54,378 bases of DNA, taken from IMG/VR virus record IMGVR_UViG_3300040985_000347, positions 1 through 54,378 of that record, one strand, 5' to 3'. Positions 12,022 to 35,900 of the stretch are shown in pieces. The stretch comes from a virus (taxonomy: Duplodnaviria; Caudoviricetes). Position 1 is the first letter of the stretch. The number at the start of each line of letters is the position of its first letter. The notes beneath the pieces were generated by a model. The model saw only the letters and a program-made list of their open reading frames with translations. It ran no database searches and was not told where the DNA came from. The position numbers were made by a program, and so were the translations under genes.

Positions 12022-12951
12022 TTATGAGTATTTAGTGTTCCACCAGTTATACGATAAAGGTTGAGTACCTTGAATTGTATTCATCTTTCTTTGCCCTCTT
12101 TGAAACGCTAACACTTTATTGTCATATTGTTTTTTAAGAGCATCTTTTCTTTCTCCAGCTTTTTTAGCTGCTTTTTTACCAGCGCTTGTAGAAATTAAAG
12201 CAGCTGCAATTGCTGCCGGTATAGCTAATATAGGCCCTGCTCCAGGTATCATCATAGCCACCTGAAATGCTGTTGAACCCCAAGACATAGCATCTCCTGC
12301 CGCCTCATTATTTGTATAGGTAGTAGGATCTTTATCATCAGCTAAATATTTTGTAGCAGCCCCAACAACTCCAACCCCAGTTGCAAATCCAGATAAACCA
12401 GTCACAGCTTGTGAGTATTGACTACCTGCTAATTTATTACCCCAATTTGCCATCCCTTTACTAGCAGTCCACTCAGCATTCTTTGTAACTAGTTTTCCAT
12501 CTACAATTTGCATGCCTTTTGGTGCCGTACCTGACTTAAATAGAAGTTGATCTGCTTCGCTAAGTTTAGTTACATCAACAGCATTAAACTTAGGTGTTGG
12601 TTTAAAAGTGCTGCTAGATGAAGTATTCCACCATTTACCAGCATTCTCTGGATTATTTACCCCCCACAACTTTGTAGGGTCATTTAGATTTTCAGCAGTA
12701 GTCTTAAGGTTTTTGCCTTTGTATTGGTTAAATGCCCATAGCTGAGCTTTGTTTCCTATTCCCTTTCTTCGTTGATCTCCGTAAAAATCAAGTTGTGATT
12801 GTTGTTGGCCTGTAGTATTTAACGCCGTTATTTCGTTTTGATACCCTTGATTTAAAGAGTATAAATCGTCTGCTCTTTTACCAGTCCAATAAGAACTACG
12901 CTTTTGATTGGTCTTATCTAGTAAATTATTATATGAGAAAATCTCTGCCAT
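12022..12951 (-). CDS. Putative cargo/ejection protein with predicted transmembrane segments (309 aa)
   Basis: Hydrophobic segments GLSGFATGVGVVGAA and FQVAMMIPGAGPILAIPAAIAAALIS followed by a basic coiled coil; directly follows the tail stabilisation gene. Confidence 0.6.
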   Translation of the reverse strand: MAEIFSYNNLLDKTNQKRSSYWTGKRADDLYSLNQGYQNEITALNTTGQQQSQLDFYGDQRRKGIGNKAQLWAFNQYKGKNLKTTAENLNDPTKLWGVNNPENAGKWWNTSSSSTFKPTPKFNAVDVTKLSEADQLLFKSGTAPKGMQIVDGKLVTKNAEWTASKGMANWGNKLAGSQYSQAVTGLSGFATGVGVVGAATKYLADDKDPTTYTNNEAAGDAMSWGSTAFQVAMMIPGAGPILAIPAAIAAALISTSAGKKAAKKAGERKDALKKQYDNKVLAFQRGQRKMNTIQGTQPLSYNWWNTKYS

Positions 12952-15900
12952 TATCTATAACTTATTTTTTTATATGCATCTACCGAGTACAAAGATACAA
13001 AATTATTTTGTATATTATGATAATAATATCTAATTCCTAACCATTTATCTGTAAATTTACTTCTTTCGTGCCATTCTTTAGTGGTTGATAAGTAATCAGT
13101 GTTAAATCCAGGTAACCAATCTTCTTCATCCCCTGCCCCAATTGATGATGTGTCTGGCCATGTGCTAGGCTGAATATAGTTATTAACCATAGGCTCACTA
13201 GAAGGTGGTGAATTAAGTACAGAGTAATCTGCATCATCCCTAAAGCCATTGAAAACCCAAGATCTTTCTTTCCTTCTGCCATTAACTCCTTCTTCATAAG
13301 GAAGTAGTTGAGACAACTGTCTTGAATTGTAGATCTGAAAGAAAGATACTGGAGGAGTAAGAGGCTGATCTCTATAACCTCCTGTAACTACGTCTTGATG
13401 AGTAGCTACCCAGTTAATAGATTTATATGTTTTTGTTAACTCAGGACTTACATTATCAATGTAGTCTACCATAAACCCGTAATTTGTATTATAGAACCGC
13501 CCAGGAGTTTGGTTAATTATAGATGCTTGTGGAGGTTGATGCACCCACACTTTATTATTAAAATTAGTAGTACTATCAAAAGTTTCCCCTTCTATACTAT
13601 AAAACCTATTTAGCCCAGTTAAATAGTGTGCAGGTTTATAACTATGAAAAGATACCCATGCTTTAGTTTGAGGATCATATGATGCCGTCCACTCTCTATG
13701 TCGTTTAAAGTATTGTAACCATAAACTTCCAAGTCCCGCTTTTTTGAACCATCTTGTATTAGGATCATAATAAACACCAGACCAACTAGCGTCTGGGTTT
13801 TGCTTTAAATCTTTTTTAGTTAATATAAATCTTTTAAGAGAAGGGTCGTACGTAGCAATTATACCTATTCCTTTAATAGGATTATCATAATTATGCGGCA
13901 ATCCATACTGAGTTAACTCTGAGCCAGTTTGAAGATGCTCTGCAAAAAAATGTTTTAATCCATGTGCAGAAACTTCTTCAAGTTTTTCGCCCATTAAAAA
14001 TACTTTTCCTGCATCTTTGTCTGCAAAAAAGTATCCAAACTCAGAAGATATGGCTCCCCATTGACTACCGCTACCACCATAACCTCGATCAGTAAGTAGT
14101 ATTTCTGCAGGATCTTTTTCAAATAAATCTCCAGTACCAAGAAAAGCCTCAGAAGCGTCTGACACTTGTAAAGTTTCTTTACCTTTAGTAAGATACATTG
14201 CACGTTCCATATGCGGAACTACAACATTATTCCAAGATTTAACTTTCCACAGCTCACCTCTATGCCTAGGAAGATCTCTATAATCTTCAGGTAAGTAAAC
14301 CCTAAAATTATCTCTTAATCCTGACTGGTTATATTTAATACTTCTTATTATTCTGGTAGGAAAATCTGTAAAACTTTGTAAAGGCTCATCTTTATCAAAA
14401 GCCTGCACAAGCCTAGTCATGTTTAATTTATTAAAATCTAAATTATATGCAGCTAGTTTTTTAGTTGGGGCTTCATGATCCATTAGTAAAGAATGGCTAA
14501 TAGGATAAGACGGATAGTAAGCGGTACCATCTGAGTCAGTATGTCTCATATACGGATTATGTCTAGACTCAGTCATAAAAACATACCCTGAATAATCCCA
14601 AATCTTGTCATTATTTATAAGTCTTGTCGATGATGGTGCAAATAATTCATCATGACTAAACGGCGTCCCTCCTCCTAAGATATGTTGATAGTAGTTTGAA
14701 CCACCAGTTGGATTAGTAGTGTATCTAGATGATTTTCTATATCTGTCGTATGAATAATACCCAAGAAAAATATCTCCTCCCATGCAGATATTTCCAGTAC
14801 CCTCCCACGAAGCTAAAGAATTTGGATTGTGTATATATCCTAAACCTCCACCGGGGTCAATAATATTTTGTGCATATCCTGTATATACAAATTGAGTTTG
14901 GTTATTAAATCCTAAATGAACATTTAACTTTAACGAATAAAAATTAGCTTGATTATGATATATAGCTGTAGATTTATTTATCTGATTTGTTGTAGTTAAT
15001 AAGGATGTGTATGTATCAGTATGTATACTAGCATCATGAAACCAATTATCAAACTCCCAAGTATCATACATCTCGAATGCAAGACATTCAGTTCCATTTT
15101 GATTATCTACAGTATTAGTAAACCCAGAAGGCATCATAATAGCTCCTCCAGGTACACGAGACTTACCTCTAATAGCAAATGACCTATGATAGGGTGGAGA
15201 CCCTCCAATATTCACCTGATTATGTTTACAAAAATCATAACTCAAGTGCGTTTCATTTTGCCTGTTACCAAAAGTTACACCATCAGAAGATACTTGCCAA
15301 ATAGAAAATCCATCTCCAATTATTTGATACGCCGATGGTTCAATTTGCACCCAATCTATAGAAGCAATAGAATCTCCACTTAACATTGAGTCTAAAGGTA
15401 AGGCTGTAAAAAAGGGAGTAGGTACTTCATTTAACCCAGGTGTACCAGCAGTGCCCGTGTCATCTAGCCATTGATGAGGAAAGCATACCCATACAGACCC
15501 AAAGTTATCAAAATGTTTACCTCCATTTTCTCTACCTCCTTGTATTGGAGCGTAATCAACACAAACTTTTTCGTTTGTAGTTTTTTCTAAATAATATATT
15601 TTATAAGCAACAACTAAATCTATAATCTCTGCAGGTACTGGAACATCATTAATACGGATCCCTAGAGGATTAAGAGTTTGATGCGATTCTGGGTTACCAC
15701 TGGCAGCGTCTCCATGGAATCCGCTTTCAGCATAAGCGCCATCTGCAGGAAAATGATGATGCCTAACTAGTTCACCGTGCAGACCTGTAGATCCTGCAAC
15801 TTCCACAGAATTACCAGACCCATCTACAATCCATTCTTCAAAATTACCTGCATAATTACCATCTATATCTACATCCTGGGCTATAGTAGGATACGTTTCA

Positions 15901-17444
15901 GTTTGATTTTCCCAATAACCAAAACCTCTCATTCCATTATTGCTATAAATACTTCCAGCGGAAAAATCAGTAAAATAATATAGGCTTTGACCTCCTAAAT
16001 GTGGTATTTGACTTATCCAAGGATGATCAGTATTTGATGTTGTTTGTGTTACTGTATCAACTATATCATTCTCCATCATTCCTCCATCTGCATCCCACGT
16101 TCCATTTTCAAACCATTTCCACGTATTTTGAGCTCTTCTACCTGGTATATGATAAGCAACACTTTCTGTACCATCTTTCAACACCCAAGTAATATAGAAT
16201 GCATATACCTCTCCTCTTTTATATCCTTTTAATGTACTAGCATAGCGATTACCTTTTAAAGCAAACCTGTCCATAGGTATGTTAGTATCATATGGCAAGT
16301 GCCATATTGTTGTCGACCCAGTAGTTGAATCATGACTAGAGTTTACTTGAGCTTTGTGTATTTGTATACTATTTGCATATTTTTGATACCCAATATCAGT
16401 TCTATTTTTTTCTAAATTTCCCCAGTATAATACATCATCTACTTGCGCAACTGATTTTGCTTTAGTGTAAGCTTCTTTAGGAACTTGAACAGCACCTATT
16501 ATCTCTGATGCAGCTTGTTCTAATCCTGTAAAGTATACATATGTTAAACCTCCTACTAGAGTGTTGATGTGCACTTTGTCAATAGTAACTGCATCCTGAA
16601 TGTTGTCTATTACTCTTATAATACAAGGTTGAATAAATTTATAATCTAAATCTAACTGCCGCACAGACCATCTAATAGCTTTAGATGTTCCTATACCCCC
16701 TGCACCTCCATTATACACACCATCGTTTAAGAGGTTGGTAGATCCCCAAGAATTTACAGGCTCTGCCGCAGCAGCCTCATTCTCATCATTTATATATACA
16801 GGATTACCTATTTCTAAATATGAAGTTACAGCCCCATCTTCTGTCATATATGCAATAGCTAACTGATAAGTTCCTAATTTAAGAGCACCTCCATTAGACA
16901 GTATATTATCTAGTACTACAATAGGATATGATTTTATTTGAGGAAATAAATTAAAAAGATCTAAATTATATGGAGATACAGGCACATTACTAAGATTCAT
17001 ATATCTTGGAACATTATTATCATCCGTCCAATATATTGAAACTTCTCCTGTGGAGTTGATTTTATATTCTCCTTCTATAGGAAACCCATCATTAAAATTA
17101 AACTTCTCTGTTGATGTGGCGTCGTTTATAAGAACAGTATACACACCAGATAAACTTACTGTACCTATTTCAGAAACACTTCCTGATTTTTTAAAAGAAA
17201 ACAAAACAAACTTTGTTTGAGAGGCTAAATCATTCACAACTATTGAGCCGATAACTTCATAGTCAGCAGTAATTGAGCAGTAGGTTAGGTTCCCTGACTC
17301 ATTTGAAATAGCACCTATATCTCTGCCCGTAGTAGCATTTAGTGCATACCTATACGTACCAGGCAATTGATCTATAGGATTTAAATCTCTATTGATGCCT
17401 TGAATAAGTTTTTGCTGTTTGCTGCCTTGTTTCTTCTCTGCCAT
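12951..17444 (-). CDS. Tail stabilisation protein (P22 gp10-like; crAss muzzle-type), 1497 aa
   Basis: GINRD...PGTYRYALNA N-terminus, YWTDDNNVPRYMNL, GYKRGEVYAFYITW, and a C-terminal beta-propeller-like region with WVSFHSY; follows the tail tubular gene. Confidence 0.8.
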   Translation of the reverse strand: MAEKKQGSKQQKLIQGINRDLNPIDQLPGTYRYALNATTGRDIGAISNESGNLTYCSITADYEVIGSIVVNDLASQTKFVLFSFKKSGSVSEIGTVSLSGVYTVLINDATSTEKFNFNDGFPIEGEYKINSTGEVSIYWTDDNNVPRYMNLSNVPVSPYNLDLFNLFPQIKSYPIVVLDNILSNGGALKLGTYQLAIAYMTEDGAVTSYLEIGNPVYINDENEAAAAEPVNSWGSTNLLNDGVYNGGAGGIGTSKAIRWSVRQLDLDYKFIQPCIIRVIDNIQDAVTIDKVHINTLVGGLTYVYFTGLEQAASEIIGAVQVPKEAYTKAKSVAQVDDVLYWGNLEKNRTDIGYQKYANSIQIHKAQVNSSHDSTTGSTTIWHLPYDTNIPMDRFALKGNRYASTLKGYKRGEVYAFYITWVLKDGTESVAYHIPGRRAQNTWKWFENGTWDADGGMMENDIVDTVTQTTSNTDHPWISQIPHLGGQSLYYFTDFSAGSIYSNNGMRGFGYWENQTETYPTIAQDVDIDGNYAGNFEEWIVDGSGNSVEVAGSTGLHGELVRHHHFPADGAYAESGFHGDAASGNPESHQTLNPLGIRINDVPVPAEIIDLVVAYKIYYLEKTTNEKVCVDYAPIQGGRENGGKHFDNFGSVWVCFPHQWLDDTGTAGTPGLNEVPTPFFTALPLDSMLSGDSIASIDWVQIEPSAYQIIGDGFSIWQVSSDGVTFGNRQNETHLSYDFCKHNQVNIGGSPPYHRSFAIRGKSRVPGGAIMMPSGFTNTVDNQNGTECLAFEMYDTWEFDNWFHDASIHTDTYTSLLTTTNQINKSTAIYHNQANFYSLKLNVHLGFNNQTQFVYTGYAQNIIDPGGGLGYIHNPNSLASWEGTGNICMGGDIFLGYYSYDRYRKSSRYTTNPTGGSNYYQHILGGGTPFSHDELFAPSSTRLINNDKIWDYSGYVFMTESRHNPYMRHTDSDGTAYYPSYPISHSLLMDHEAPTKKLAAYNLDFNKLNMTRLVQAFDKDEPLQSFTDFPTRIIRSIKYNQSGLRDNFRVYLPEDYRDLPRHRGELWKVKSWNNVVVPHMERAMYLTKGKETLQVSDASEAFLGTGDLFEKDPAEILLTDRGYGGSGSQWGAISSEFGYFFADKDAGKVFLMGEKLEEVSAHGLKHFFAEHLQTGSELTQYGLPHNYDNPIKGIGIIATYDPSLKRFILTKKDLKQNPDASWSGVYYDPNTRWFKKAGLGSLWLQYFKRHREWTASYDPQTKAWVSFHSYKPAHYLTGLNRFYSIEGETFDSTTNFNNKVWVHQPPQASIINQTPGRFYNTNYGFMVDYIDNVSPELTKTYKSINWVATHQDVVTGGYRDQPLTPPVSFFQIYNSRQLSQLLPYEEGVNGRRKERSWVFNGFRDDADYSVLNSPPSSEPMVNNYIQPSTWPDTSSIGAGDEEDWLPGFNTDYLSTTKEWHERSKFTDKWLGIRYYYHNIQNNFVSLYSVDAYKKISYR
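12990..12997 (-). promoter_or_regulatory. Candidate Bacteroidota-type -7 promoter box (TATCTTTG) for the cargo genes, inside the 3' end of the stabilisation gene
   Basis: Matches TAnnTTTG followed by TA, like the two intergenic boxes; about 40 nt upstream of the ATG at 12951. Could be a chance match in AT-rich DNA. Confidence 0.4.
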
Positions 17445-20655: not shown

Positions 20656-21048
20656 CTACTTTTTGGCTTTTTCAAGTGAGCGACCACCAAAGTATGCACC
20701 TATTACAGTTATCAATACTAATTGTAATAAATCTGTCCATTTTGCTTCGACCACAAAGTTAATAACTCCTGCGTCAATAAATATTAATAATACAGTACTT
20801 ATCACCAAAAATATTAACACTAATGGTCTTACATTCTTACTTAACCAAGAATCAGACTTCATGTCTGCCTCCCATCTTGAGCTTATTTCTTTTTCCATTT
20901 GAACTTCATAACTAGCTATAAGTTCTTTAATTTTTTGTTCAGCAGCTAACTTTTCTTCATCAGATGTGTGTAGACTATCTATAACTCCACCCACTCCTTT
21001 AACTAGCTCAGTAGCTCCTGTTGAAAATATTTTTCCTAATATACTCAT
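20656..21048 (-). CDS. Holin (3TM/GTA holin-like)
   Basis: RWEADMKSDSWLSKNVRP motif, two strong TM helices, and an AYFGGRSLEK C-terminus; close to the endolysin. Confidence 0.75.
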   Translation of the reverse strand: MSILGKIFSTGATELVKGVGGVIDSLHTSDEEKLAAEQKIKELIASYEVQMEKEISSRWEADMKSDSWLSKNVRPLVLIFLVISTVLLIFIDAGVINFVVEAKWTDLLQLVLITVIGAYFGGRSLEKAKK

Positions 21049-21053
21049 ATTTT

Positions 21054-22148
21054 TTATTTTAATTTTTCTTTCTCTTTAATAACACGTTCTTCTCTTTCTT
21101 CTTCTTGACTGCCCGCAATCTCATCCGTATATGTAACCACGTCTCTGTACTCTTCAGGAACAATAGTGTCCTCTCCATATGATTCTTCTTCTTTGATTAT
21201 ATCTATACTTACTAGCGGAGTTATGCTTGCTAACTCTGGATGGTTAAGCACGTCAGCTCTTGCTTTTTCCCTTTCTTGATTTTCAATTTGTAATAGGCTT
21301 TGGTCTATCAAATACCCTTCGACTACCGTCGTTACAGCTACAGTTCCTAATACAGTTTCAATATCTATATTTATATCAGTCCCAGCAGGAAATAAATAAG
21401 GGTCATCAAAAATTAAAGCTGGTTGATTTTGAGCTTCAAACGTATTTGGTATCCTACCTTTATATATAGTTTGTAACGCTCCATGTATTCCGGCTTTTAA
21501 ACTCCAGGTACATACGTATAGTGCACTTGTCTGTAGTTTAATACTATGTATATACAAACTGTGGGCGCTAGGAACTGTATAATGAGAACTTAACATCTTT
21601 CCTTCTTCTGCTATAATCTTAGCGTAAATATTTTGAGTGGCTATCGGAACTCCTGAAGAAACAAAATCGTTTATATCTATTATATTATACTGTCTAGCGT
21701 CATCTAAAGCTGTAATATAAATATCTCCTTGATTTTTTAACAATCTTCCCGATGTAATTACTTTTATATCATTTATCCTCTTATAGTGCTTAGCTAATTT
21801 TACAGGGATTTGTCCAGCCAATCTAACTGTTTCTGTTTGAATACGATACGAAGATGTGAGTCCTGTAATTCTAACTTCTATAGCTCCTTTGTCTCCATGC
21901 CTATCTTCAACTACTTCTTGTCCTTCATCATAATTTCCATACCCTGTATCAAGAATACTAGAGCTAGATATAAAGTATGTTCTAGTATATAAACTGTCAT
22001 TAGTTAAAGTCCTAGGCACACTAATAGGAAACTTATAGTATCCATTACCATTAAGACCTAACCCACTACAAACACTTTCAGGGTCTGTACTAGTTGTTAT
22101 CTCAGGGTTATACCCAATCCTACAAAATTTAGTTTTATATACTGCCAT
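21054..22148 (-). CDS. Hypothetical protein (364 aa), beta-rich with acidic tail
   Basis: Tightly packed ORF between endolysin and holin; no family recognised. Confidence 0.6.
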   Translation of the reverse strand: MAVYKTKFCRIGYNPEITTSTDPESVCSGLGLNGNGYYKFPISVPRTLTNDSLYTRTYFISSSSILDTGYGNYDEGQEVVEDRHGDKGAIEVRITGLTSSYRIQTETVRLAGQIPVKLAKHYKRINDIKVITSGRLLKNQGDIYITALDDARQYNIIDINDFVSSGVPIATQNIYAKIIAEEGKMLSSHYTVPSAHSLYIHSIKLQTSALYVCTWSLKAGIHGALQTIYKGRIPNTFEAQNQPALIFDDPYLFPAGTDINIDIETVLGTVAVTTVVEGYLIDQSLLQIENQEREKARADVLNHPELASITPLVSIDIIKEEESYGEDTIVPEEYRDVVTYTDEIAGSQEEEREERVIKEKEKLK

Positions 22149-22151
22149 ATA

Positions 22152-22619
22152 TTATACGCTTCTATTTTCATAAACAGTTTTACCGTTCTTTTTTAGTGCT
22201 ACTGTCAATTTCTTTCTATTAGGTCTGTGAGTTACATAACTAACATGTATCCAATTAGGATTTTTATCTGTGCCAAATTCCCACACCATTTGATCAAAAT
22301 CTAAATTTTCTTTTATATAATAATACACTTCAGCATTTGTTTTATACTTAAATGTATCATCTATATCCATAGCTTGACCTTTCATATGCTGTGAGTTTTT
22401 AGATCCTCCTATTGCAGTGTTAACTGGCTCTCCTCTAAACATACTGTTTATTTTTATAGGACCTCCAGCCCACTCTCTTAAAGGTTCAAATATATTCTCT
22501 GCAATATCTTTCATGCATTTAATTTGATCTTCATTAGGAGTATTATCCAAATTCAATCTATCACCTGTTCTACTATAAGTTGCTTCTTTCCAACTTACAT
22601 GTTTACTTATTCTTTCCAT
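22152..22619 (-). CDS. Peptidase M15 family endolysin
   Basis: SMFR...NTAIGGSKNSQHMKGQAMD...WIHVSY Zn-peptidase motifs. Start moved to ATG 22619 (MERISKH) to remove the overlap with the upstream gene. Confidence 0.85.
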   Translation of the reverse strand: MERISKHVSWKEATYSRTGDRLNLDNTPNEDQIKCMKDIAENIFEPLREWAGGPIKINSMFRGEPVNTAIGGSKNSQHMKGQAMDIDDTFKYKTNAEVYYYIKENLDFDQMVWEFGTDKNPNWIHVSYVTHRPNRKKLTVALKKNGKTVYENRSV

Positions 22620-22623
22620 ATTT

Positions 22624-22998
22624 CTATGCAAATACTCCGTACTCAATAATTGTCTCCGCTGACTGTACATAAGTCTTATACGTTGCTTCTTTATTAAGTG
22701 TAAGCCAAATAGACTCTGATCCTGCTAATTTTACAAAGTTAGTATCATCAGAGTCATCTGTAAATATATACACATAATTAGAAGCTGTCGTATCTGTATT
22801 TTTAAGGTACAACCATACTGGACCAGTTTGATCGTTAGCTGTGTATAAAGTACTAGCCGCACCTGCTGTTGTGCCTGTTACCGCATACCTAATAATACCT
22901 CCTTGTGTACAGGTTAAACTTTGATTGTTCTCTACACTTAACGAGTCTGTTGTTAAATCTGTCGACGTTATAGTTAATTTTACTTTTACTGTTGCCAT
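22624..22998 (-). CDS. Small beta-rich protein, paralogue of 23033-23416
   Basis: Shares LTxTSTD..TDSLS, YLKN, FxxL..xE and IEYxVF with its neighbour. Confidence 0.7.
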   Translation of the reverse strand: MATVKVKLTITSTDLTTDSLSVENNQSLTCTQGGIIRYAVTGTTAGAASTLYTANDQTGPVWLYLKNTDTTASNYVYIFTDDSDDTNFVKLAGSESIWLTLNKEATYKTYVQSAETIIEYGVFA

Positions 22999-23032
22999 TC
23001 TTATTTATTTTAATTGTTATTAATTATTTTTA

Positions 23033-23416
23033 CTACGCTTCAAATACTGCATACTCTATTACAGGAGTTCCCGATGCTGATTCTACCCAAAGATAATCAT
23101 TTCCTCCATAAGGAAAGAACATCCATTCTCCTGAACCTAACACTGCAAATGTTTCTCCTACAGACCCGCTATTATCTTCTGCTACTATTAGCTTTTCTGA
23201 TGTGTCAGTGCTTAAATTTTTAAGATAAATATATGCTTTCTTGTCTGTAGAGTCCAAAACACCTACTGGTATCTTAGAAGCTGTTGTACTTGTTGTGTAT
23301 CTTCCTATAGCTTGCTCATCTCCAGACGCTACTATGTTTGCTGTCTGGTTGATGCTTAAGGAGTCTGTATGCCAGTCTGTACTGGTTAACGTTAATCTTG
23401 CTGATAATTTTGCCAT
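23033..23416 (-). CDS. Small beta-rich protein, paralogue of 22624-22998
   Basis: Same motif series as its neighbour; TAG TAA double stop. Confidence 0.7.
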   Translation of the reverse strand: MAKLSARLTLTSTDWHTDSLSINQTANIVASGDEQAIGRYTTSTTASKIPVGVLDSTDKKAYIYLKNLSTDTSEKLIVAEDNSGSVGETFAVLGSGEWMFFPYGGNDYLWVESASGTPVIEYAVFEA

Positions 23417-23430
23417 AATTTCTATTTTTA

Positions 23431-26100
23431 TTATTTGTTATTAATTTTTACTTTTCTAGTCACACTTCCATCATCATATATATATAATATAATTTGATTC
23501 TTAATATTATCTACAGGCCTACCTAATAGATCTGTGGTCATTATTAAATTTTTCTTTTCTGCTCGTTTAGGTAACGAAGTGGTCCAATTACTTGAGCAAT
23601 GTTCATATGTTAATTGACAGATTTCATCCCATTCATTATCACAACAATACTCATCTACTTCAATGACCCATGCATAACAAAGGTCATTTAACCAATAAGG
23701 TATACCAGGACCTGTAATACAACCAGCATCATAATTACAGCTAAGACTGTCAGGCGTATTAGCAATTGGGTCATAGTTATAGGCTGTTTGGTCCATACAA
23801 CCTTGAACCACATCCACACACGAACCATTATCAGTATTAGCTGTTGAATCGTAATTAAGAGCAGTGCTATCCATACACCCATAAATATAAGCAATACAAG
23901 AGAAATCTTCTGTATTAGCTTGGGCATTGTAGTTAAGCATACTAGGGTCAGTGCAGCCATAGATAAAAGGTATACAAGAATTATTATCAACATTTGCTAA
24001 AGGGTTAAAATTAAACATTATACTGTCAGTACAACCATATATAGGTAGTACACAACTAAAATTATCTGTATTGCATGAATCACAATAATTCAATGCAAGT
24101 GGATCTGTACATCCTAAAATAACAGGAATACAACTACCGTTATCTACGTTTGCTAGTGGGTTGTAGTTAAATGCCGTAGAGTCCATACAACCATAAATTG
24201 GTAGTATACAACTGAAATCATCAGTATTAGCTGAAGCATCATAATTTAATGCAATTGGGTTTGTACAACCATATATAAATGCAATACAAGAACTGTTGTC
24301 TGTATTAGCTAAAGGATCATAATTAAAAGCAGTAGTATCCATACATCCATAAACATGCTCTATGCAAGATCCATTGTCAGTATTTGCTGAGGCATTATAA
24401 TTAAACATTGTTGCATCTGTACACCCATAAACGTAAGGTAAACACCCCCCATCATCTGTATTTGCGCTAGGTGAATAATTCCACATAGTACTATCAGTAC
24501 ATCCTAACACTATTCCTATACAACTTCCATCATCTGTATTAGCTAGTGGGCCGTAATTAATAGCTAATTGGCTCATACATCCATATACAATAGCAATACA
24601 AGTATCAGGCGTATTAGCTTGTGGGTTATAGTTAAACGCTAAAGGTTGCATACAACCAAAGACTACGGCTACACAACCACCGTTGTCAATATTTGCTAAT
24701 GGATCGTAGTTAAAAGCAGTAGTATCTACACAACCCCAAACAGCTTGTGTTTGACAAGAACCATCATTATAATCAGCAGTAAATCCTTGACTATAATATT
24801 CTAAGAAAGATGAATTAGCACATCCTGGAAAGTAATAACAACTATTATCACTTGTATTAGCTGAATCACTATAATTTACTGCCAATGCATCTAAACATCC
24901 AAATACCTTTTCTATACAAGTATTACCACAATTTGTAATTACATTATACGGTAATAAAGGTTGTATAAAAGGAGGTTGAATATCTATAAGGATATTTCCT
25001 TCTGGGTTAATCAAAGTAAACCCACACTCTATAGTTGTTAAAGAAGCCTGAGCACTAATGAAAAACTTAAACGTTATAAGATCTGGAGCTGTTAATCCTA
25101 TGTTAAATGTATCAGTAAATCCACCTGAATGTGTAAAGTTATATACAGTATCAGGAGTTGTTAATTGTAAATTAGAACCTACCCAACCATTACCCATTAA
25201 ATCGTGTAATAACAAAGTATAACCACAACTATCTATAAGATCCATAGTATTAGCAGTAGAGTCATAATTAAACATTGTAGAATCTAAACAACCAAATATC
25301 TTTAAAGTAACACAACTACTATCATCAAAATTAGCTAATGGATTGAATTCCACATAATCAATATCCATACACCCAAGTATCGGTGGGCATGAATCAGATA
25401 CAAAAACATGTAACGTATCATAACCAAAAGCAGGATTTGTACCATATACTAATGTGTCATTACATTGTTTTAAATAATAAGAACCGTCTTGACCTTGCCA
25501 TAAAGCGCCATTTAAACCGTCTCCGTAACTATCATATATTGTAAATATTAAGTCTCCTTTAGGTATACACACAGGTACTATAATAGTAGCATAATCAGGG
25601 TTACCTGCGTATGTAACTGATTGTGCATAAATTGTCCCATTTGTATCTTTTATGTCCCATGATGTCTCACTTTGATATTGATCTAAGTTAATTATAACTG
25701 TAGCCGGCACACATGGAGGAGGGTTAGCAGCACATTGAGGTACAAGTCTGTTATGTATTAAACCTGTTGTAAATGTAGGGTTTGGGTAATTTACTATAGT
25801 ATCTTCACATATAGAAACATAGTAACTACCCCCTGGTATACCATCCCCGTAAGAATCATATATAACCCAAGATATAGTAGTTATACTATCTGCTATAGAT
25901 ACTGTATCTGTATGAGATGTATTAGAAGAATTGTAATGCCCATATTGTACTTCTGCAATAAGAGGACCTTGAAAACTATCTGCATATAGCACCCATCTTG
26001 TTTCAGATGGATAGGTATCAGTTGTTAAATGTATAAGAACATCTTTTTGCCCAAACATTAGTAAGGGTAATAATAAGATTATAAATAGTATTTTTTTCAT
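23431..26100 (-). CDS. Secreted Cys-repeat surface protein with signal peptide and T9SS-like C-terminal sorting segment
   Basis: Likely start at 26100 (MKKILFIILLLPLLMFG/QKD). Two DxYxSETxW...YDSYGDG domains, about 17 GCxD..A.NY...AN.D.GSC repeats, and a C-terminus TDLLGR...YIYDDGSVTRK. Confidence 0.8.
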   Translation of the reverse strand: MKKILFIILLLPLLMFGQKDVLIHLTTDTYPSETRWVLYADSFQGPLIAEVQYGHYNSSNTSHTDTVSIADSITTISWVIYDSYGDGIPGGSYYVSICEDTIVNYPNPTFTTGLIHNRLVPQCAANPPPCVPATVIINLDQYQSETSWDIKDTNGTIYAQSVTYAGNPDYATIIVPVCIPKGDLIFTIYDSYGDGLNGALWQGQDGSYYLKQCNDTLVYGTNPAFGYDTLHVFVSDSCPPILGCMDIDYVEFNPLANFDDSSCVTLKIFGCLDSTMFNYDSTANTMDLIDSCGYTLLLHDLMGNGWVGSNLQLTTPDTVYNFTHSGGFTDTFNIGLTAPDLITFKFFISAQASLTTIECGFTLINPEGNILIDIQPPFIQPLLPYNVITNCGNTCIEKVFGCLDALAVNYSDSANTSDNSCYYFPGCANSSFLEYYSQGFTADYNDGSCQTQAVWGCVDTTAFNYDPLANIDNGGCVAVVFGCMQPLAFNYNPQANTPDTCIAIVYGCMSQLAINYGPLANTDDGSCIGIVLGCTDSTMWNYSPSANTDDGGCLPYVYGCTDATMFNYNASANTDNGSCIEHVYGCMDTTAFNYDPLANTDNSSCIAFIYGCTNPIALNYDASANTDDFSCILPIYGCMDSTAFNYNPLANVDNGSCIPVILGCTDPLALNYCDSCNTDNFSCVLPIYGCTDSIMFNFNPLANVDNNSCIPFIYGCTDPSMLNYNAQANTEDFSCIAYIYGCMDSTALNYDSTANTDNGSCVDVVQGCMDQTAYNYDPIANTPDSLSCNYDAGCITGPGIPYWLNDLCYAWVIEVDEYCCDNEWDEICQLTYEHCSSNWTTSLPKRAEKKNLIMTTDLLGRPVDNIKNQIILYIYDDGSVTRKVKINNK
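23740..25385 (-). repeat. Degenerate ~78-nt coding repeats (GCxDxxAxNYxxxANxDxGSC, ~26 aa)
   Basis: About 17 copies counted in the translation, mostly in tandem with one intervening domain. Confidence 0.85.
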
Positions 26101-26101
26101 T

Positions 26102-26461
26102 TTAAAAATCACTCATTAATTGATTATCTATTTCTTCTTGCACTTCTTCTTTTGTTGCCACCATCTTAAAACTAAGATCAGCTTGAAATCTAGCAACCTC
26201 CTCCCCGTCTTTAAATATTATAATAGTCGGTATAACCGCTATTTTGTATTTTGTTTGTGCTTCTGCATCCTTAGCTATATCTACATAAGAATATGTGTTG
26301 CAATCCTTTAAGTCCATAACCCAAGAAACTTCGTTAGCACTATTCCAACCAGCGTTGAATTGAGTTACTTTCATTTGAGCAAAAGCACCACTAGCAACTA
26401 GCATGAAAAGAAGTACTAACATATACATACCAAATATTCTCCAAGTGACAGTCTCTTCCAT
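26102..26461 (-). CDS. Exported thioredoxin-fold protein lacking CxxC
   Basis: Signal peptide ending AFA/Q. FNAGWNSAN sits where FxAxWCxxC would be; VDI...KYKIAVIPTIIIFKDGEEVARF is a thioredoxin-type cis-Pro region. Confidence 0.7.
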   Translation of the reverse strand: MEETVTWRIFGMYMLVLLFMLVASGAFAQMKVTQFNAGWNSANEVSWVMDLKDCNTYSYVDIAKDAEAQTKYKIAVIPTIIIFKDGEEVARFQADLSFKMVATKEEVQEEIDNQLMSDF

Positions 26462-26742
26462 TATCTATCGTATAATTTATCCTCTATCTTTTCTAGAGAC
26501 TTTTTAATTTCATCAACATCATCTTTAGTTTCCATGATAGTATTACGAATCATTTGATCTTTCATGTTAAACTCCATACGAGTAACTTCATCTGGCGGTA
26601 TAACCGGCAGTTCTCTTGCTTCTGCAATATCCTCTTGTAGCATGAACCACATACTAATTAAAGTTGCCATAGCAAATCCTATAGCAATTAATGTTTTAAT
26701 GCTTAGTACAAAGCCTGTATCTTCGTTTAACTCTTTTGCCAT
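26461..26742 (-). CDS. Small membrane-anchored coiled-coil protein (93 aa)
   Basis: One N-terminal TM helix followed by heptad repeats; translationally coupled to the thioredoxin-like gene. Confidence 0.7.
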   Translation of the reverse strand: MAKELNEDTGFVLSIKTLIAIGFAMATLISMWFMLQEDIAEARELPVIPPDEVTRMEFNMKDQMIRNTIMETKDDVDEIKKSLEKIEDKLYDR

Positions 26743-26743
26743 A

Positions 26744-26953
26744 TTAATTCCAAAATGTTAGTTTACTTAATATACCTATTAATATTATCCATATAGACCA
26801 TAAAGTTTTTTGAGCTCCTTTTCTAAAAGCTGTATTTCTATTAACTTTAGATATTGTTCCTTTATCAGGATCTAATAATCTAATCTTAATGTCTCTAAGA
26901 TCTTGCTTCATATCAAGCATTTCTTGATGTAATTGTTGATTAGTTATAGGCAT
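26744..26953 (-). CDS. Small protein with C-terminal TM helix (69 aa), possibly holin-like
   Basis: Coiled-coil N-terminus and TLWSIWIILIGILSKLTFW C-terminus. Confidence 0.6.
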   Translation of the reverse strand: MPITNQQLHQEMLDMKQDLRDIKIRLLDPDKGTISKVNRNTAFRKGAQKTLWSIWIILIGILSKLTFWN

Positions 26954-27123
26954 TAAGCTTCGAATCCAAAGTTAAATACTATAATTCTAACCCTTTTAGC
27001 TGTACATTCTTCTGTGCAGAATAAACATGCTTTAATTTCTAATAAAGTTAATCTACCTAATCTTATACAGATTTCGTATTTTTCTTTTTTATTTCCTTTT
27101 GCCCAACTATTAATCCAATTCAT
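26953..27123 (-). CDS. Small hypothetical protein (56 aa), not in ORF track
   Basis: MNWINSWAKGNKKEKYEICIRLGRLTLLEIKACLFCTEECTAKRVRIIVFNFGFEA; fills the gap exactly with a TAATG overlap. Confidence 0.65.
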   Translation of the reverse strand: MNWINSWAKGNKKEKYEICIRLGRLTLLEIKACLFCTEECTAKRVRIIVFNFGFEA

Positions 27124-27134
27124 TTTATTTACTT

Positions 27135-28229
27135 TTAAAATATTATATAATTAACTCCAAATTTAAAATCATACCACTCTCTATTCCAATATTTATTATA
27201 TTTACCTTCTACAAAGTACCCTAAATTTTTGTTTACTTTTAGACCGTAAATAAGTCCTGTAGAGTAGTCGTACCACTGTTCTCCTTTATTATAATTAAAA
27301 TAAGAAAATTCTCCACCAGCATCATAATGATATGGTAGTAGGTTGCCCCATGCATGTAACCATGTATTCTTATTATATTTATAATAATCAAATCCTATAA
27401 TAATAGAATGTTGTATGATATTTTTTAATTCATTTCTTTTTCTTTCAGTATAATCAGCTAATACTTGCGGTATAACAACTTCTTTCCATACGTCTGCGCT
27501 ATTAGCTACTATATTTCCACTAGGGTCTTTATATTCATTTGCATATACATCTACGCTATAACCTTCTTGTATAGCTAAATACGTATAATGTAAATTACCG
27601 TTTGATAAAATCCATTCTTCTAATGGGTTATAACCATAAGGTTCTGCTAATCTGTGTGCCGCACCTACACTAAATGATAAAGTTTTGGTTTGTTTATATC
27701 TATATCTTTCTGATAATTCAAAATACTTTATATCAGCAAAGCCATCTTTTAAATATTCTACTTTAGCAGCAAAATGATTTATACATAAAGGCCCGTCACA
27801 ATCATCATCAGAACTGTATCTAATAAAGTGATGTTGATCTACATAATCAACTCCTTGCTGTCTTGCATAATCTACTTCAAAAAGATATTCAAATCCTTGT
27901 ACTTTACCTACAGTAGCTGCATCACTATAGTTAGATTCTGTCCCATCATAAAATGTGTTAGCTTTATTCTCATATCCAAATCTAGCTATTTTTCTAATAC
28001 CTAATGTAACAGAATAATCATACGGGGTTGTTGATAGTCCTTCTTCTAATTGCCCAGATGTTACAGAAAATGTTTTTACGTCTGACAAAGACGTTCCCCC
28101 ATTAACTGCTCCATATACTGTAGAAAATTTTAATTGCTCTTTTAAAATCTTCTCGAAGTTAATCCCTTCTTGAGCATTGACTGCAAAGTTAATTAAAAAG
28201 CTTAATAAAATATTTAGGACTTTATTCAT
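27135..28229 (-). CDS. Putative outer-membrane beta-barrel protein
   Basis: Signal peptide ending VNA/Q, Tyr/Phe-rich alternating strands, and a C-terminal beta-signal-like YDFKFGVNYIIF with terminal Phe. Confidence 0.7.
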   Translation of the reverse strand: MNKVLNILLSFLINFAVNAQEGINFEKILKEQLKFSTVYGAVNGGTSLSDVKTFSVTSGQLEEGLSTTPYDYSVTLGIRKIARFGYENKANTFYDGTESNYSDAATVGKVQGFEYLFEVDYARQQGVDYVDQHHFIRYSSDDDCDGPLCINHFAAKVEYLKDGFADIKYFELSERYRYKQTKTLSFSVGAAHRLAEPYGYNPLEEWILSNGNLHYTYLAIQEGYSVDVYANEYKDPSGNIVANSADVWKEVVIPQVLADYTERKRNELKNIIQHSIIIGFDYYKYNKNTWLHAWGNLLPYHYDAGGEFSYFNYNKGEQWYDYSTGLIYGLKVNKNLGYFVEGKYNKYWNREWYDFKFGVNYIIF

Positions 28230-32964: not shown

Positions 32965-35900
32965 TTAAAAGTCAAAATTTTGTATGTCGTCTACTCCGTC
33001 TATTCCTGTTATTGGAGAAGAAGATTCATTTGGATCTGGTAGATAATCAACATCTGCATCTGTCTTAGCTTTACTTGCACAGTCTGGGCAGATCTTTGTT
33101 AAATAAGTGGTCCAAGTTAGTAAAATTTGTGGAGATAAGCAAGCCCCGCGGAACCCTAATGCGAACCTTTTTATTAAGTATCTTATTAACAATACTCTCC
33201 ACACATCTATAGTATTGTAACTAAAACTTTCTCTATCTAGTAATCCTCCTAGTAATTTATCATAAACAGTAGTAGCAAGATTACCTACACACCCTACAAT
33301 ATCTGCAAGATCATCTTCACATTCAGGACAATCTGGCTCTAATTCATTTGTTCCTGCGCATCTAAATATACCATTACAATATGTTAAATGCTGCCCTGAT
33401 GGACATTGATGTCCGACAAATTGATTAGTTGTATAATGAAAATCTCCATTTATATAAGACTCACTTGATATAGGAGTTCCCCCTCCATCTAGTACAGTTA
33501 TACTTTGAAGATCTGTAGCTGTAATTGTAGGGTCTGCTAAGTACGCAACTGTTGGTAGACCCCCTACATTGCTATTATATAATTCAAATGCAAAAGCTGC
33601 TGGTCCTGTTGTATTGCTACCATCAAATTTTAAAGTGTGTTTTCCTGGTAATAACGCTATAGGAAATAAATTCCAAAATGTATTATTTGATGTCTGGCCA
33701 AATAAGTGTATATACTCTTGACCGTCTACAGAAAACCTAACGTCATCATCTCCAGCTAAAGCTAATATATAATTAGTAGCAGATGGTAAATCTATAGTAC
33801 ATATTGTAATTCCAACTCTAGAATTAGTAGGCTCATGATTTGTAGTAGTAGAAGTATACTGAGTAAACCATTGAGGCCATATACCTATATCTTTCAATCT
33901 ATCATTATATACTGGGAAGTTCATAGTCCAAGATGGGTCTGTTTCTAATATTCCTGCTCCGACGTCTGAGACTTCACCCTCTCCTAACGTACCAGGATTT
34001 TGTGAGGTAAATGGTAATAAATTTAAATCTTGACCTATAGGAACCGGGGATACGTAAGTACCTCCACTCCATTGCCCAAATATTTTAGCTCCAACTTGCC
34101 CCCAAGTTAAAGTGTTTGCACAGCAAGGCATATTCTGAGCTACAGTAACTGCCGTCCAATGATTCTTCCACACCCCACCTGAAGCTAAACACTTTACAGG
34201 ATTATTAACACCTCCAATAACTGTACCTGCATTAGCATCAAAACATTTGCCGTATAGCGGAGCAACTTCATTTTCAAATCCTACACATGTATTAAAGTTT
34301 GGATTAACTAGTAGATCTCCAGTCCATACTCCTGCGGCGTTAGTACAATCTAAATAATTAGTATGACCCCCAATACTACAAGTACCACTATTTAAATCTT
34401 CTATATATTGATTCTCGTCTAACTCATAACCTGGAGGACATCCACAATCACAGTTTTCTGCTCCAAATATATCAATAAGATTTAACATCCCATTATCTAT
34501 AACAGCTGCTGCACAATTATCACAATTTTCTATTGGAGCTATCAGAGGAGAACCACTTGTCCCTCCATACGACGATGCAGGTGCATCTGTTACATTATTA
34601 GTAACTCTAACAATATACATAGCTTCTAGTGCTGCTGTTCCAAGCGGAGCGCCAACAGATAAATTTGTTAGAGTAAATTCTACTGGTGCGCCCATTTGAC
34701 CCGCTGTTGGTGCATAATAGAAATGTCCTTGAGAATCTAAATTACCATCTATTTCAGGGCATATTTCATTACCGGTACTAGTTTCTACTAATTGAAAACA
34801 CCATCCGCTATTGTTTGCGCTACATGCTGGAGTTCCACATTCATATCCTCCTTGTCCTGCCCCTGCGGTAAAGTCAAACTTTACTGGATGATCTACACAA
34901 CAATCTAAATTACAAGATCCTGTACCTGGAACATCACAACAAACATCTCCGTAATAAGGAGAAAATAAATTACTATCATAAGGTAAAGAGGATGTTCCTG
35001 GATCTTCTATAAATACTTCAATTGCCCAGTTCATACCTGTATACCAAAAATCTTCTTGAACCTGAAATGTAAAAGTACCATTAGTACCCCCCATAATAGT
35101 TACCCCTGTATGCCCTACTGTAGTAACATTTAAATTAGATATACTCTCTAACTCTACTTTTGTACCTCCATTCCATGTAGCTACTGAATGATCTGCAAAT
35201 ATATCTACAAAATCTGCATAACAATTATTCTGTGTACAATCTACACAAAAGTTAACACATGTAGCTGGTCCTCCAGGATTACAATCTTCTACAACATCAT
35301 CAAATACAGGGATACCACAAGTACTAGAATCATGAACCCATATTCTATATATGCCAGAATCTAAATTATCAAAACCAAAATATGTAATACCAGAATTAGG
35401 ATCTACTATAGAAGTCCAAGTTCCTGGTGTTGTTGTACTAGCATTATAATTAGTTATATTAAATATTGTAGGCCCACTATCAGTAGCCGTAGGATTAGTA
35501 TTAACCCAGTGTAAACCATCGTCAATACTGTAATATAAATCTCCTACTCCACCACTTGCAGAAATAGTTATAGAGCCGCATCCACAATCATTACAATAAG
35601 GATGAGTGTATTGTATGTCTTCAATAAGTACTGGGTTATTTGCTATAGTCCAAGTTCCTGTAACAGTTTCACCACAAAAGTCTGTAACAGTAACTTCATA
35701 ATCTCCAGGACATAGTCCATGTATGTCTTGTGTTGCAGCGCCTGGCCACACAGCAAGATTAGTTGTGCTAATAGGAGCTCCTGAAGTAGTTATCCATGAA
35801 TATGTAAATGGACCAACTCCATCGTGCACAGTTAAATTAATATCACCACTACATTCGTCGCAGCAGTTAGCATCGTCTACAACTGCAGATAAAGTCATAG

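Follow-up and report, generated by a model that had tools for sequence, protein, structure and literature searches.

A six-gene region in a viral contig

The 54,378-bp IMG/VR viral contig IMGVR_UViG_3300040985_000347 (hereafter the window, i.e., the whole stretch of DNA that was analyzed) is a partial genome recovered as a single contig, and all of its long open reading frames (ORFs) lie on the minus strand. Our subject is a group of six minus-strand ORFs at positions 23431 to 28229, separated from their neighbors by −11 to +14 nt. A first-pass annotation, made from the sequence alone, had described six tightly coupled genes in this region, and all of the ORFs are present there. In order of transcription, they comprise barrel364 (27135 to 28229), encoding a 364-aa protein predicted to be an outer-membrane beta-barrel; p56 (26953 to 27123), whose 56-aa product has four Cys and, by hydropathy, no transmembrane segment; tm69 (26744 to 26953), whose 69-aa product has an N-terminal helix and a C-terminal transmembrane segment (tail-anchored, again by hydropathy); tm93 (26461 to 26742), encoding a predicted type II inner-membrane protein of 93 aa; trx119 (26102 to 26461), encoding a predicted periplasmic thioredoxin-fold protein of 119 aa (the Trx-like protein); and cargo (23431 to 26112), encoding a predicted secreted, Cys-rich protein of 893 aa. 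The start codon of cargo is the GTG at 26112, with an alternative ATG at 26100 that would give 889 aa. We refer to the barrel, tm93, and the Trx-like protein jointly as the trio.

Conservation of the trio

Two sets of viral loci were compared. Clade A consists of 79 related loci with a homolog of the window barrel, in which the window proteins were compared by tblastn. Clade B consists of 80 loci with a second, divergent form of the barrel (31 to 35% identical to that of the window and first met on contigs of metagenome-assembled genomes, or MAGs), annotated with hidden Markov models (HMMs) built in this analysis. Within clade A, tblastn matches were obtained for the barrel in 79 loci, tm93 in 68, the Trx-like protein in 66, and the cargo in 64, followed by the holin encoded downstream (33), p56 (21), tm69 (13), and the flanking fiber-like genes (4 to 10). 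All three trio genes occur together in 66/79 clade-A loci and in 73/80 clade-B loci. The cargo is present in 58 of the 66 trio-bearing clade-A loci, and none of the 80 clade-B loci matches any of four cargo HMMs. Gene order is similarly constrained: tm93 always lies directly upstream of trx, and the barrel gene stands before or after this pair in both clades; in clade A, the order tm93–trx–cargo is fixed, with the barrel gene before or after that block.

On this distribution, the trio is a conserved unit and the six genes are not one system, p56 and tm69 being sporadic accessory genes. The first-pass annotation had viewed the six genes as one surface-remodeling cassette built on a type IX secretion system (T9SS) cargo, a view that is not supported, since 73 of the 80 clade-B loci have the trio without a cargo. 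Given these cargo-free cassettes and their adjacency to lysis genes (see below), the cargo looks like an insertion into a tm93–trx–barrel–endolysin–holin cassette. The synteny in viral contigs that the annotation had anticipated does exist, as a conserved multi-gene set in the 79 and 80 loci. Moreover, this recurrence of gene order in independent viral contigs, along with an unremarkable GC content (0.30 to 0.34 at the six-gene region versus 0.30 to 0.40 across the window), excludes the chimeric host insert at 23431 to 28229 that it had entertained.

Homologs of the barrel are numerous (3697 at E ≤ 1e-3, with 435 viral stretches), and the clade-B form occurs in at least 590 viral-contig stretches. 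Twelve barrel loci in MAG contigs were considered as host genes and rejected: the taxonomy of the MAGs is inconsistent (Parvibaculum, Rickettsiales, Nitrosopelagicus, Pelagibacter, and Woesearchaeota, along with 4 Bacteroidota), and the contigs are taken to be mis-binned phage contigs. Among 50,697 GenBank phage records, there is no match for the six-gene region at the DNA level, for the window barrel, or for the clade-B barrel. None of the six proteins matches PHROGs; in Pfam and NCBIfam, only the Trx-like protein matches, to thioredoxin models and below their cut-offs; and PADLOC returned nothing for the six proteins beyond a weak DpdE match (E of 0.0042) for the Trx-like protein. With no family or system match for the set and none in the GenBank phage records, the earlier statement that no characterized system has this composition still stands. 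The literature searches likewise returned no paper describing either a phage-encoded T9SS cargo or a barrel/tm93/Trx trio.

Linkage to lysis genes

Downstream of the six-gene region, the window encodes an M15 endolysin (22152 to 22670, minus strand; Peptidase_M15_3, 1.3e-13; phrog_894 endolysin, 6.7e-29) and a holin (20656 to 21048, minus strand; phrog_3427 holin, 1.6e-32; GTA_holin_3TM, 1.5e-4), and likewise an exonuclease; the distance from the end of the trio to the endolysin gene is 3.4 kb. The same association holds across both clades. Among the 62 evaluable clade-B loci (those with at least 1.5 kb of sequence downstream), 57 have an endolysin or holin homolog downstream, 54 of them within 1.5 kb, at a median gap of 200 nt; in clade A, lysis genes are downstream in 36 of 40 evaluable loci and within 3 kb in 33, at a median gap of 990 nt. 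At one clade-B locus (L160), the order is tm93–trx–barrel–endolysin–holin, with three junctions that overlap by 1 to 4 nt and a fourth with a gap of 2 nt; at another (L087), the order is endolysin–barrel–tm93–trx, after which the operon ends. The trio genes thus lie where spanin genes do, in a cassette with holin and endolysin. No ORF with a lipobox is found on the coding strand of the window.

The trio also resembles the lysis genes in its pattern of divergence. We compared the window proteins with those of four module-bearing phage genomes (G001, 95 kb; G003, 68.7 kb; G004, 68 kb; G005, 56 kb), in which TerL is 21 to 37% identical to that of the window and the major capsid protein (MCP) is 25% identical or undetected. 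In these same genomes, identities amount to 62 to 82% for the barrel, 51 to 74% for tm93, 54 to 79% for the Trx-like protein, and 38 to 70% for the cargo, with 75 to 90% for the holin (four genomes), 63 to 76% for the endolysin (three genomes), 56 to 60% for p56 (three genomes), and 52% for tm69 (G005 only). No window protein other than these eight passes 40% identity across an alignment longer than 100 residues or across the greater part of its own length. The trio thus seems to be transferred and constrained in the manner of the lysis genes, which is what proteins that must fit the envelope of one host would be expected to show.

Predicted export, folds, and topology

Signal peptides were judged by hydropathy and by conservation across homologs. 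Hydrophobic N-terminal segments are present in the barrel, the Trx-like protein, and the cargo, and a hydrophobic N terminus followed by a small residue and Gln is kept in 75/75 barrel, 64/65 Trx-like, and 53/58 cargo homologs from the 79 related loci. In the window, the barrel has a signal peptidase I (SPI)-type signal peptide (MNKVLNILLSFLINFAVNA/Q, cleaved at VNA/Q), and that of the cargo ends in LLMFG/Q. Signal peptides of Bacteroidetes leave Gln at position +1 (the Q-rule; PMC5837995, PMC10653852). Retention of the combined pattern argues that these are real SPI substrates and that the host belongs to the Bacteroidota. At the level of sequence, the three are supported as phage proteins exported to the envelope of a Bacteroidota host. 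The three Sec signal peptides that the first-pass annotation had placed before a Gln are therefore borne out, as are its two single-transmembrane proteins, the segment being N-terminal in tm93 and C-terminal in tm69.

One divergent locus (L086, 8001 to 9699) has a barrel signal peptide without a following Gln, and the tm93-like protein there is extended at its N terminus by a long cytoplasmic stretch that contains a poly-Pro run; this locus may represent a version adapted to a non-Bacteroidota host.

AlphaFold2 modeling of the barrel from 51 sequences gives a predicted local distance difference test (pLDDT) score of 77.4 and a predicted template-modeling (pTM) score of 0.72, with about 14 strands and a helical insert at aa 202 to 267. 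The best VIA structural matches are 12-strand outer-membrane barrels (Tsx, Z of 13.9; EstA barrel, 13.5; KdgM, 13.2; NanC, 12.8), and Foldseek returned 128 matches at E ≤ 0.001, of which those listed are generic outer-membrane barrels with TM-scores of 0.25 to 0.36. PorV is not among the 50 structural matches listed, which are generic barrels of 12 to 14 strands. With its signal peptide and a modeled closed barrel of antiparallel amphipathic strands, the 364-aa protein is predicted to be an outer-membrane beta-barrel, in agreement with the first-pass annotation. The beta-signal that this annotation saw in the terminal GVNYIIF does not survive comparison: the terminal Phe is not conserved, the last residue being F in 51, R in 23, and L in 1 of 75 clade-A barrels, and F in only 1 of 73 clade-B barrels.

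Barrel homologs range from 344 to 409 aa and share, in both clades, the polar residues E114, H292, D321, E341, and N360 (window numbering); the loop at aa 82 to 109 is strongly conserved but modeled with low confidence. The barrel matches no family in Pfam, PHROGs, or NCBIfam. A further 21 barrels, from clade B, likewise gave no Pfam or NCBIfam match, and PorP_SprF is among the models that neither they nor the window barrel hit. In 24 of 75 clade-A barrels (e.g., L005, 8001 to 9035, and L009, 8001 to 9098), the SPI-type signal is replaced by a lipobox Cys followed by xxPKxCC[SAG]Q, and the barrel of some phages is thus probably a lipoprotein with two extra N-terminal Cys. No lipobox is found in any of 73 clade-B barrels or in the window barrel.

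The Trx-like protein on its own falls just short of the Pfam Thioredoxin model (E of 1.2e-4, 22.4 bits versus a cut-off of 23.5 bits), and its profile, built from 37 sequences, matches 141 thioredoxin-type sequences of the PDB at E ≤ 0.01 (best, 2vim_A, 8.7e-9). By profile, it has a thioredoxin fold, and it has no CxxC redox site: FNAGWNSAN stands at the WCGPC region, the alignment has a gap at CGPC, and CxxC is absent from all 65 clade-A and all 72 clade-B homologs. The claim of a thioredoxin fold without CxxC is confirmed accordingly by the PDB matches and by these homologs. The cis-Pro region (VPT) is retained. S117 and F119 of the C-terminal S-x-F are invariant in the family alignment; in clade B, 58 of 72 proteins end in SxF and 70 of 72 have the final F. 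A fused form (one 340-aa protein on a 1.9-kb contig) was taken as an assembly or gene-call artifact.

For tm93, topology was judged from hydropathy and charge only. The protein has one hydrophobic segment (aa 9 to 36), a Pro-rich linker, and a heptad-like helical C terminus, and its periplasmic helix is predicted from sequence to be a coiled coil; on hydropathy and charge, it has the i-spanin arrangement of an N-terminal transmembrane segment, N terminus inside, and periplasmic coiled coil. The linker varies in length, and clade-B ORFs span 92 to 110 aa, except for one of 56 aa. Many clade-B cassettes have two tandem tm93-like genes between barrel and trx (e.g., L127, 8197 to 8777, and L146, 8188 to 8755). 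Searches of the ESM Atlas with tm93 and the cargo head gave only viral "hypothetical protein" clusters; matches to MAM (0.80) and DUF2730 (0.82) fell below 0.9 and were not used.

The inserted cargo and its C-terminal tail

The cargo has 2033 homologs, in which a Cys-rich C-terminal domain is conserved and the N-terminal heads are of at least five types. AlphaFold2 modeling of aa 20 to 420 (24853 to 26055) yields three beta-sandwich domains (pLDDT 84.7, pTM 0.42) with folds of the C2/PLAT/CBM type; the best Z of 7.5 is at the background level for beta-sandwiches, and we propose no specific ligand for the heads. The modeling and fold comparison revealed no enzyme domain in the cargo. Residues 247 to 797 consist of about 17 repeats of 26 aa with two Cys each (disulfide repeats), the whole protein containing 51 Cys. 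Only this Cys-repeat part has matches in GenBank phages, namely, a "virion structural protein" of cyanophage S-CAM3 and one marine virus. The 26-aa repeat, GCxDxxAxNYxxxANxDxxSC, is located in this Synechococcus phage, a cyanomyovirus, at record positions 36382 to 37932 (L092), and, judged by its sequence, it is a shared marine extracellular stalk module.

The last 43 aa of the cargo (23434 to 23562, minus strand) form a tail that resembles a cellular C-terminal sorting tag and has no match at E ≤ 1 to the T9SS C-terminal domain (CTD) models Por_Secre_tail (PF18962) and TIGR04183. Among the 120 best cargo homologs, 19 end in a Por_Secre_tail CTD, 97 in a short tail of the window type, and 4 are truncated; on rescanning 7 of the 19, all 7 matched, 6 of them at or above the 27-bit cut-off. 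The earlier description of an approximately 890-aa Cys-repeat T9SS-type cargo therefore holds in part: the protein is of a secreted, Cys-repeat type and 19 of 120 homologs have a true CTD, whereas its own tail matches no CTD model.

A 41-position profile of the tail gave 15 matches on 13 contigs of a Flavobacteriales MAG (G006), each ending 1 to 3 residues before the stop of a different, unrelated ORF (loci L109 to L121; e.g., L109, 2044 to 3138; L111, 418 to 2004; and L112, 2238 to 3137). Their consensus, of about 40 aa, is KKLIxITDLLGRxxxxxxNxxLFYIYDDGTVEKKxIK. An N-terminal signal peptide is visible in 11 of the 15 ORFs, and contig ends truncate 3 of the remaining 4. Five of these proteins, along with the only tail-matching protein of a second MAG (G007; CotH), were found to carry Pfam domains that include PKD, Exo_endo_phos, LRR, PI-PLC-X, and Cu2_monoox_C, and none of the six has a CTD match. 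G006, the one MAG rich in this tail, also encodes SprA (2384 bits), together with 42 type A CTDs. When 401 genomes of its class were sampled, tail matches turned up in 18, of which four had several (14, 8, 3, and 2) and the rest a single one. From these sequence matches, the tail looks like a C-terminal sorting tag used by cells of a restricted lineage, interchangeable with the T9SS CTD in the phage protein. Shared by the cargo and 15 secreted proteins of host type, it suggests a sorting signal that has yet to be catalogued, and it may serve as a sequence handle for host prediction. Complex prediction for the mature barrel (aa 20 to 364) with the last 105 residues of the cargo scored 0.15 and 0.01 against a mark of 0.32, without controls, and is uninformative either way.

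Other features of the window

The window is a fragment of a marine crAss-like phage, as judged from its sequence. It has the crAss-type MCP, portal, and TerL expected of a Crassvirales-like phage (PHROG matches of 3.7e-80, 5.3e-124, and 2.7e-132, respectively), and the MCP (43642 to 45078) matches 137 phage records, mostly crAss-like, at 27 to 29.5% identity among the 20 matches listed. Of two giant ORFs, both typical of crAss-like virion or cargo proteins, one (2 to 5266) exceeds 1755 aa and continues past the contig end, and the other (12951 to 17444) has 1497 aa and matches phrog_15100 "virion structural protein" (4e-64). A 767-aa ORF (37440 to 39743) and a 1520-aa ORF (32965 to 37527) share 88 nt (37440 to 37527). 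Between cargo and endolysin (22624 to 23416), two paralogs of 124 and 127 aa have no signal peptides and no family match and are present in only 6 and 13 of the 79 related loci; between endolysin and holin (21054 to 22148), a 364-aa protein, again with no signal peptide or family match, recurs in 2 of the 79.

The trio as a candidate outer-membrane lysis device

We read the region as a lysis-cassette envelope trio plus a clade-specific inserted secreted cargo, and assign this reading a probability of roughly 0.5. The trio itself is probably a new envelope-spanning component of the lysis cassette, a spanin equivalent for Bacteroidota hosts. Its predicted topology (an outer-membrane protein, an inner-membrane protein with a periplasmic helix, and a periplasmic protein) fits a bridge from inner membrane through periplasm to outer membrane; it is this topology, combined with the spanin-like gene position and the lack of a lipobox ORF, that leads us to view the trio as a spanin-equivalent device for outer-membrane disruption. 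Gene content, synteny, conservation pattern, and predicted folds and topology come directly from the analysis; complex formation, outer-membrane disruption, and the export route of the cargo are what we infer from them. Of the several ways in which the first-pass annotation imagined the genes remodeling the cell surface or periplasm, an unusual outer-membrane lysis step best fits the trio, and surface display or secretion would concern the inserted cargo only.

Mechanistically, the barrel, tm93, and the Trx-like protein would be exported by the host Sec pathway, with the barrel inserted by the beta-barrel assembly machinery late in infection. The three would then connect the inner and outer membranes, the Trx-fold protein lying between its partners in the periplasm as an adaptor and docking perhaps through its invariant C-terminal S-x-F; that motif, the barrel loop at aa 82 to 109, and the variable tm93 linker hint at possible interaction surfaces. 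Once holin and M15 endolysin had removed the peptidoglycan, the complex would destabilize or fuse the outer membrane. Where present, the cargo would be exported by Sec and then probably pass across or onto the outer membrane via a C-terminal tag copied from host secreted proteins, likeliest through the T9SS. With N-terminal heads that can be exchanged, it would be a protein of binding or adhesin type and not an enzyme, and may serve in masking (of receptor or debris) or adhesion.

Several observations weigh against this interpretation. A 364-aa beta-barrel is without precedent as a spanin component, and most two-component spanins have periplasmic Cys, of which tm93 has none; moreover, its periplasmic part is only about 55 aa long. 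The cultured phages P12024L (Nonlabens) and 1.238.A (Vibrio), which have the same holin and endolysin families, have cassettes with only a small transmembrane, coiled-coil protein, so barrel and Trx-like protein are not universally needed with these lysis genes. (Homology of tm93 to those small proteins was considered and set aside: at only 4 to 8 bits, the likeness is one of architecture.) The holin and endolysin genes of G003 lie 9 to 35 kb from its trio, and unrelated accessory genes, too, tend to collect next to lysis genes at the end of a late operon. The clade-A cargo gene interrupts the set and has its translation coupled to that of trx, an arrangement that would be in keeping with a chaperone–cargo relation as well. 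The tail profile has no profile-level homology to type A CTDs (hhalign probability of 3.3%), and T9SS export, although the likeliest route for the window cargo, is accordingly deduced for a tail that lacks CTD homology. Finally, the trio is present in no cultured phage among the GenBank records searched.

The strongest of the alternatives, and an unlikely one, holds that the trio regulates lysis timing as an antiholin or lysis-inhibition sensor of envelope state or superinfection, comparable to the periplasmic RI of T4. It would draw on the same tight linkage to holin and endolysin and on the small transmembrane, coiled-coil proteins that adjoin this holin family in cultured phages without barrel or Trx-like protein, an arrangement that suggests that tm93-type proteins may act with the holin itself. 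A sensor, however, has no obvious need of an integral outer-membrane barrel, the trio shows no similarity to known antiholins in Pfam or PHROGs, and the 4 to 8 bits noted above tie tm93 only loosely to those proteins.

It is quite unlikely that all six genes form one surface-display or secretion system in which the barrel is the outer-membrane anchor or partner of the cargo (in the way that PorP/SprF serves type B CTD proteins), the Trx-like protein a periplasmic chaperone for this 51-Cys protein, and tm93 an inner-membrane tether. Redox-inactive Trx-fold domains do act as substrate binders, as known from the b′ domains of protein disulfide isomerase (PDI). In clade A, the fixed tm93–trx–cargo order, the overlap of the cargo start with the trx stop, and the cargo's presence in 58 of 66 trio-bearing loci are all in keeping with one system, as is a conserved C-terminal Cys domain with variable distal heads, such as a surface-anchored protein would have; furthermore, PorP-like anchoring of type B CTD cargo has been published (PMC9143113). 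Against this, clade B has the trio in 73 of 80 loci and no cargo-like sequence in any, the L087 operon stops right after trx, and homologs with a full type A CTD, which need no private anchor, still lie beside a barrel gene (e.g., L053 and L059); nor does PorP_SprF match the barrels searched. A role for the Trx-like protein as a cargo chaperone would thus fit clade A but not clade B.

It also seems improbable that outer-membrane lysis is the work of the barrel by itself, whether it forms a pore or lesion or degrades lipid or LPS as OMPLA, PagL, or LpxR do, with the Trx-like protein and tm93 restraining or delivering it and neither bridging nor fusion of the membranes. Barrel enzymes do occur among the structural matches (LpxR, Z of 10.7; OMPLA, 10.4; PagL, 10.0), and the five polar residues are conserved in both barrel clades, but plain channels score higher (Tsx, 13.9), the enzyme scores stay within the background expected of generic barrels, and no catalytic motif was identified. 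Least probable of all is superinfection exclusion or receptor masking unrelated to lysis by co-located, host-specific accessory genes: receptor-blocking phage outer-membrane proteins are known (e.g., T5 Llp and lambda Lom/Bor-type conversion genes) and high conservation across unrelated phages would fit host-specific exclusion, but the genome is crAss-like and of lytic type, with these genes in its late structural/lysis operon, and neither the conserved inner-membrane and periplasmic partners nor the 0- to 15-nt coupling to endolysin and holin in clade B would be explained.

If the trio does carry out the outer-membrane step of lysis, it would constitute a new class of lysis protein, a marker for lysis cassettes in marine viromes, and a candidate tool for lysing Flavobacteriia. 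More tentatively, marine phages of Bacteroidota may possess, in a three-protein bridge that is horizontally mobile, with holin and endolysin, among phage families that are not related, a third and structurally distinct class of outer-membrane disruption system; into this, one lineage may have inserted a secreted, adhesin-like cargo that copies a sorting tag of about 40 residues, not described before, from its Flavobacteriales host. The finding bears on how phages of Bacteroidota breach the outer membrane, and it concerns a trio that is very common (the barrel homologs extend over more than 1000 viral-contig stretches) yet absent from the cultured phage records searched.

Comparison with known systems

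Phage-encoded signal peptides that follow the Q-rule, as in the trio and cargo, have a counterpart in prophages of Porphyromonas gingivalis, in which proteins of unassigned function have signal peptides exposing an N-terminal Gln, a trait interpreted as adaptive for secretion by the Bacteroidota pathway (Matrishin et al. 2023, PMC10367356). Unlike the trio, those proteins come from temperate oral phages, and the available text of that report describes no homology, trio, or link to a lysis cassette (PMC10367356).

The cargo shares with T9SS type A CTD cargo (PF18962/TIGR04183) a Q-rule Sec signal peptide and a sorting region at the very C terminus, and 19 of 120 close homologs carry a genuine CTD at the same junction. 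It differs in that its tail, at 43 aa, has roughly half as many residues as the 3+4 beta-sandwich CTD and is common instead to 15 proteins of G006. The Trx-like protein resembles redox-inactive domains of the thioredoxin/PDI b′ type in its fold, by profile, and in keeping the cis-Pro VPT; unlike thioredoxins, its CGPC loop is replaced or deleted, and it has no redox Cys, is exported, and ends in S-x-F.

For phages of Proteobacteria, the outer-membrane disruption step is performed by the Rz/Rz1 spanins. As in two-component spanins (lambda Rz/Rz1 and T4 PseT.3/PseT.2), the trio pairs a type II inner-membrane coiled-coil protein with an outer-membrane component and is encoded inside a holin–endolysin cassette; spanins of this kind are needed only in didermic hosts, a further likeness to the trio, and the 24 of 75 clade-A barrels with a lipobox and neighboring Cys recall o-spanins. 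The differences are equally clear: the outer-membrane partner is a beta-barrel of 344 to 409 aa rather than a lipoprotein of 40 to 80 aa, and no small outer-membrane lipoprotein with a lipobox Cys, as an o-spanin would be, is encoded in the window; a third, periplasmic Trx-fold protein is added; and the trio resembles no spanin family in sequence, nor are its genes arranged in the embedded or overlapped fashion. Small size is not foreign to spanins, the T4 i-spanin having only 117 aa (PMC6139136). Of the 677 phages surveyed by Kongari et al. (2018), 91 yielded no spanin, among them phages of Bacteroides and Croceibacter (PMC6139136), and phiKT gp28, the cationic peptide "disruptin," indicates that spanin-less phages use other cassette proteins for the outer-membrane step (bioRxiv 10.1101/515445). 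Whereas disruptin is a single small cationic peptide, the trio would bring three exported, folded proteins to that step.

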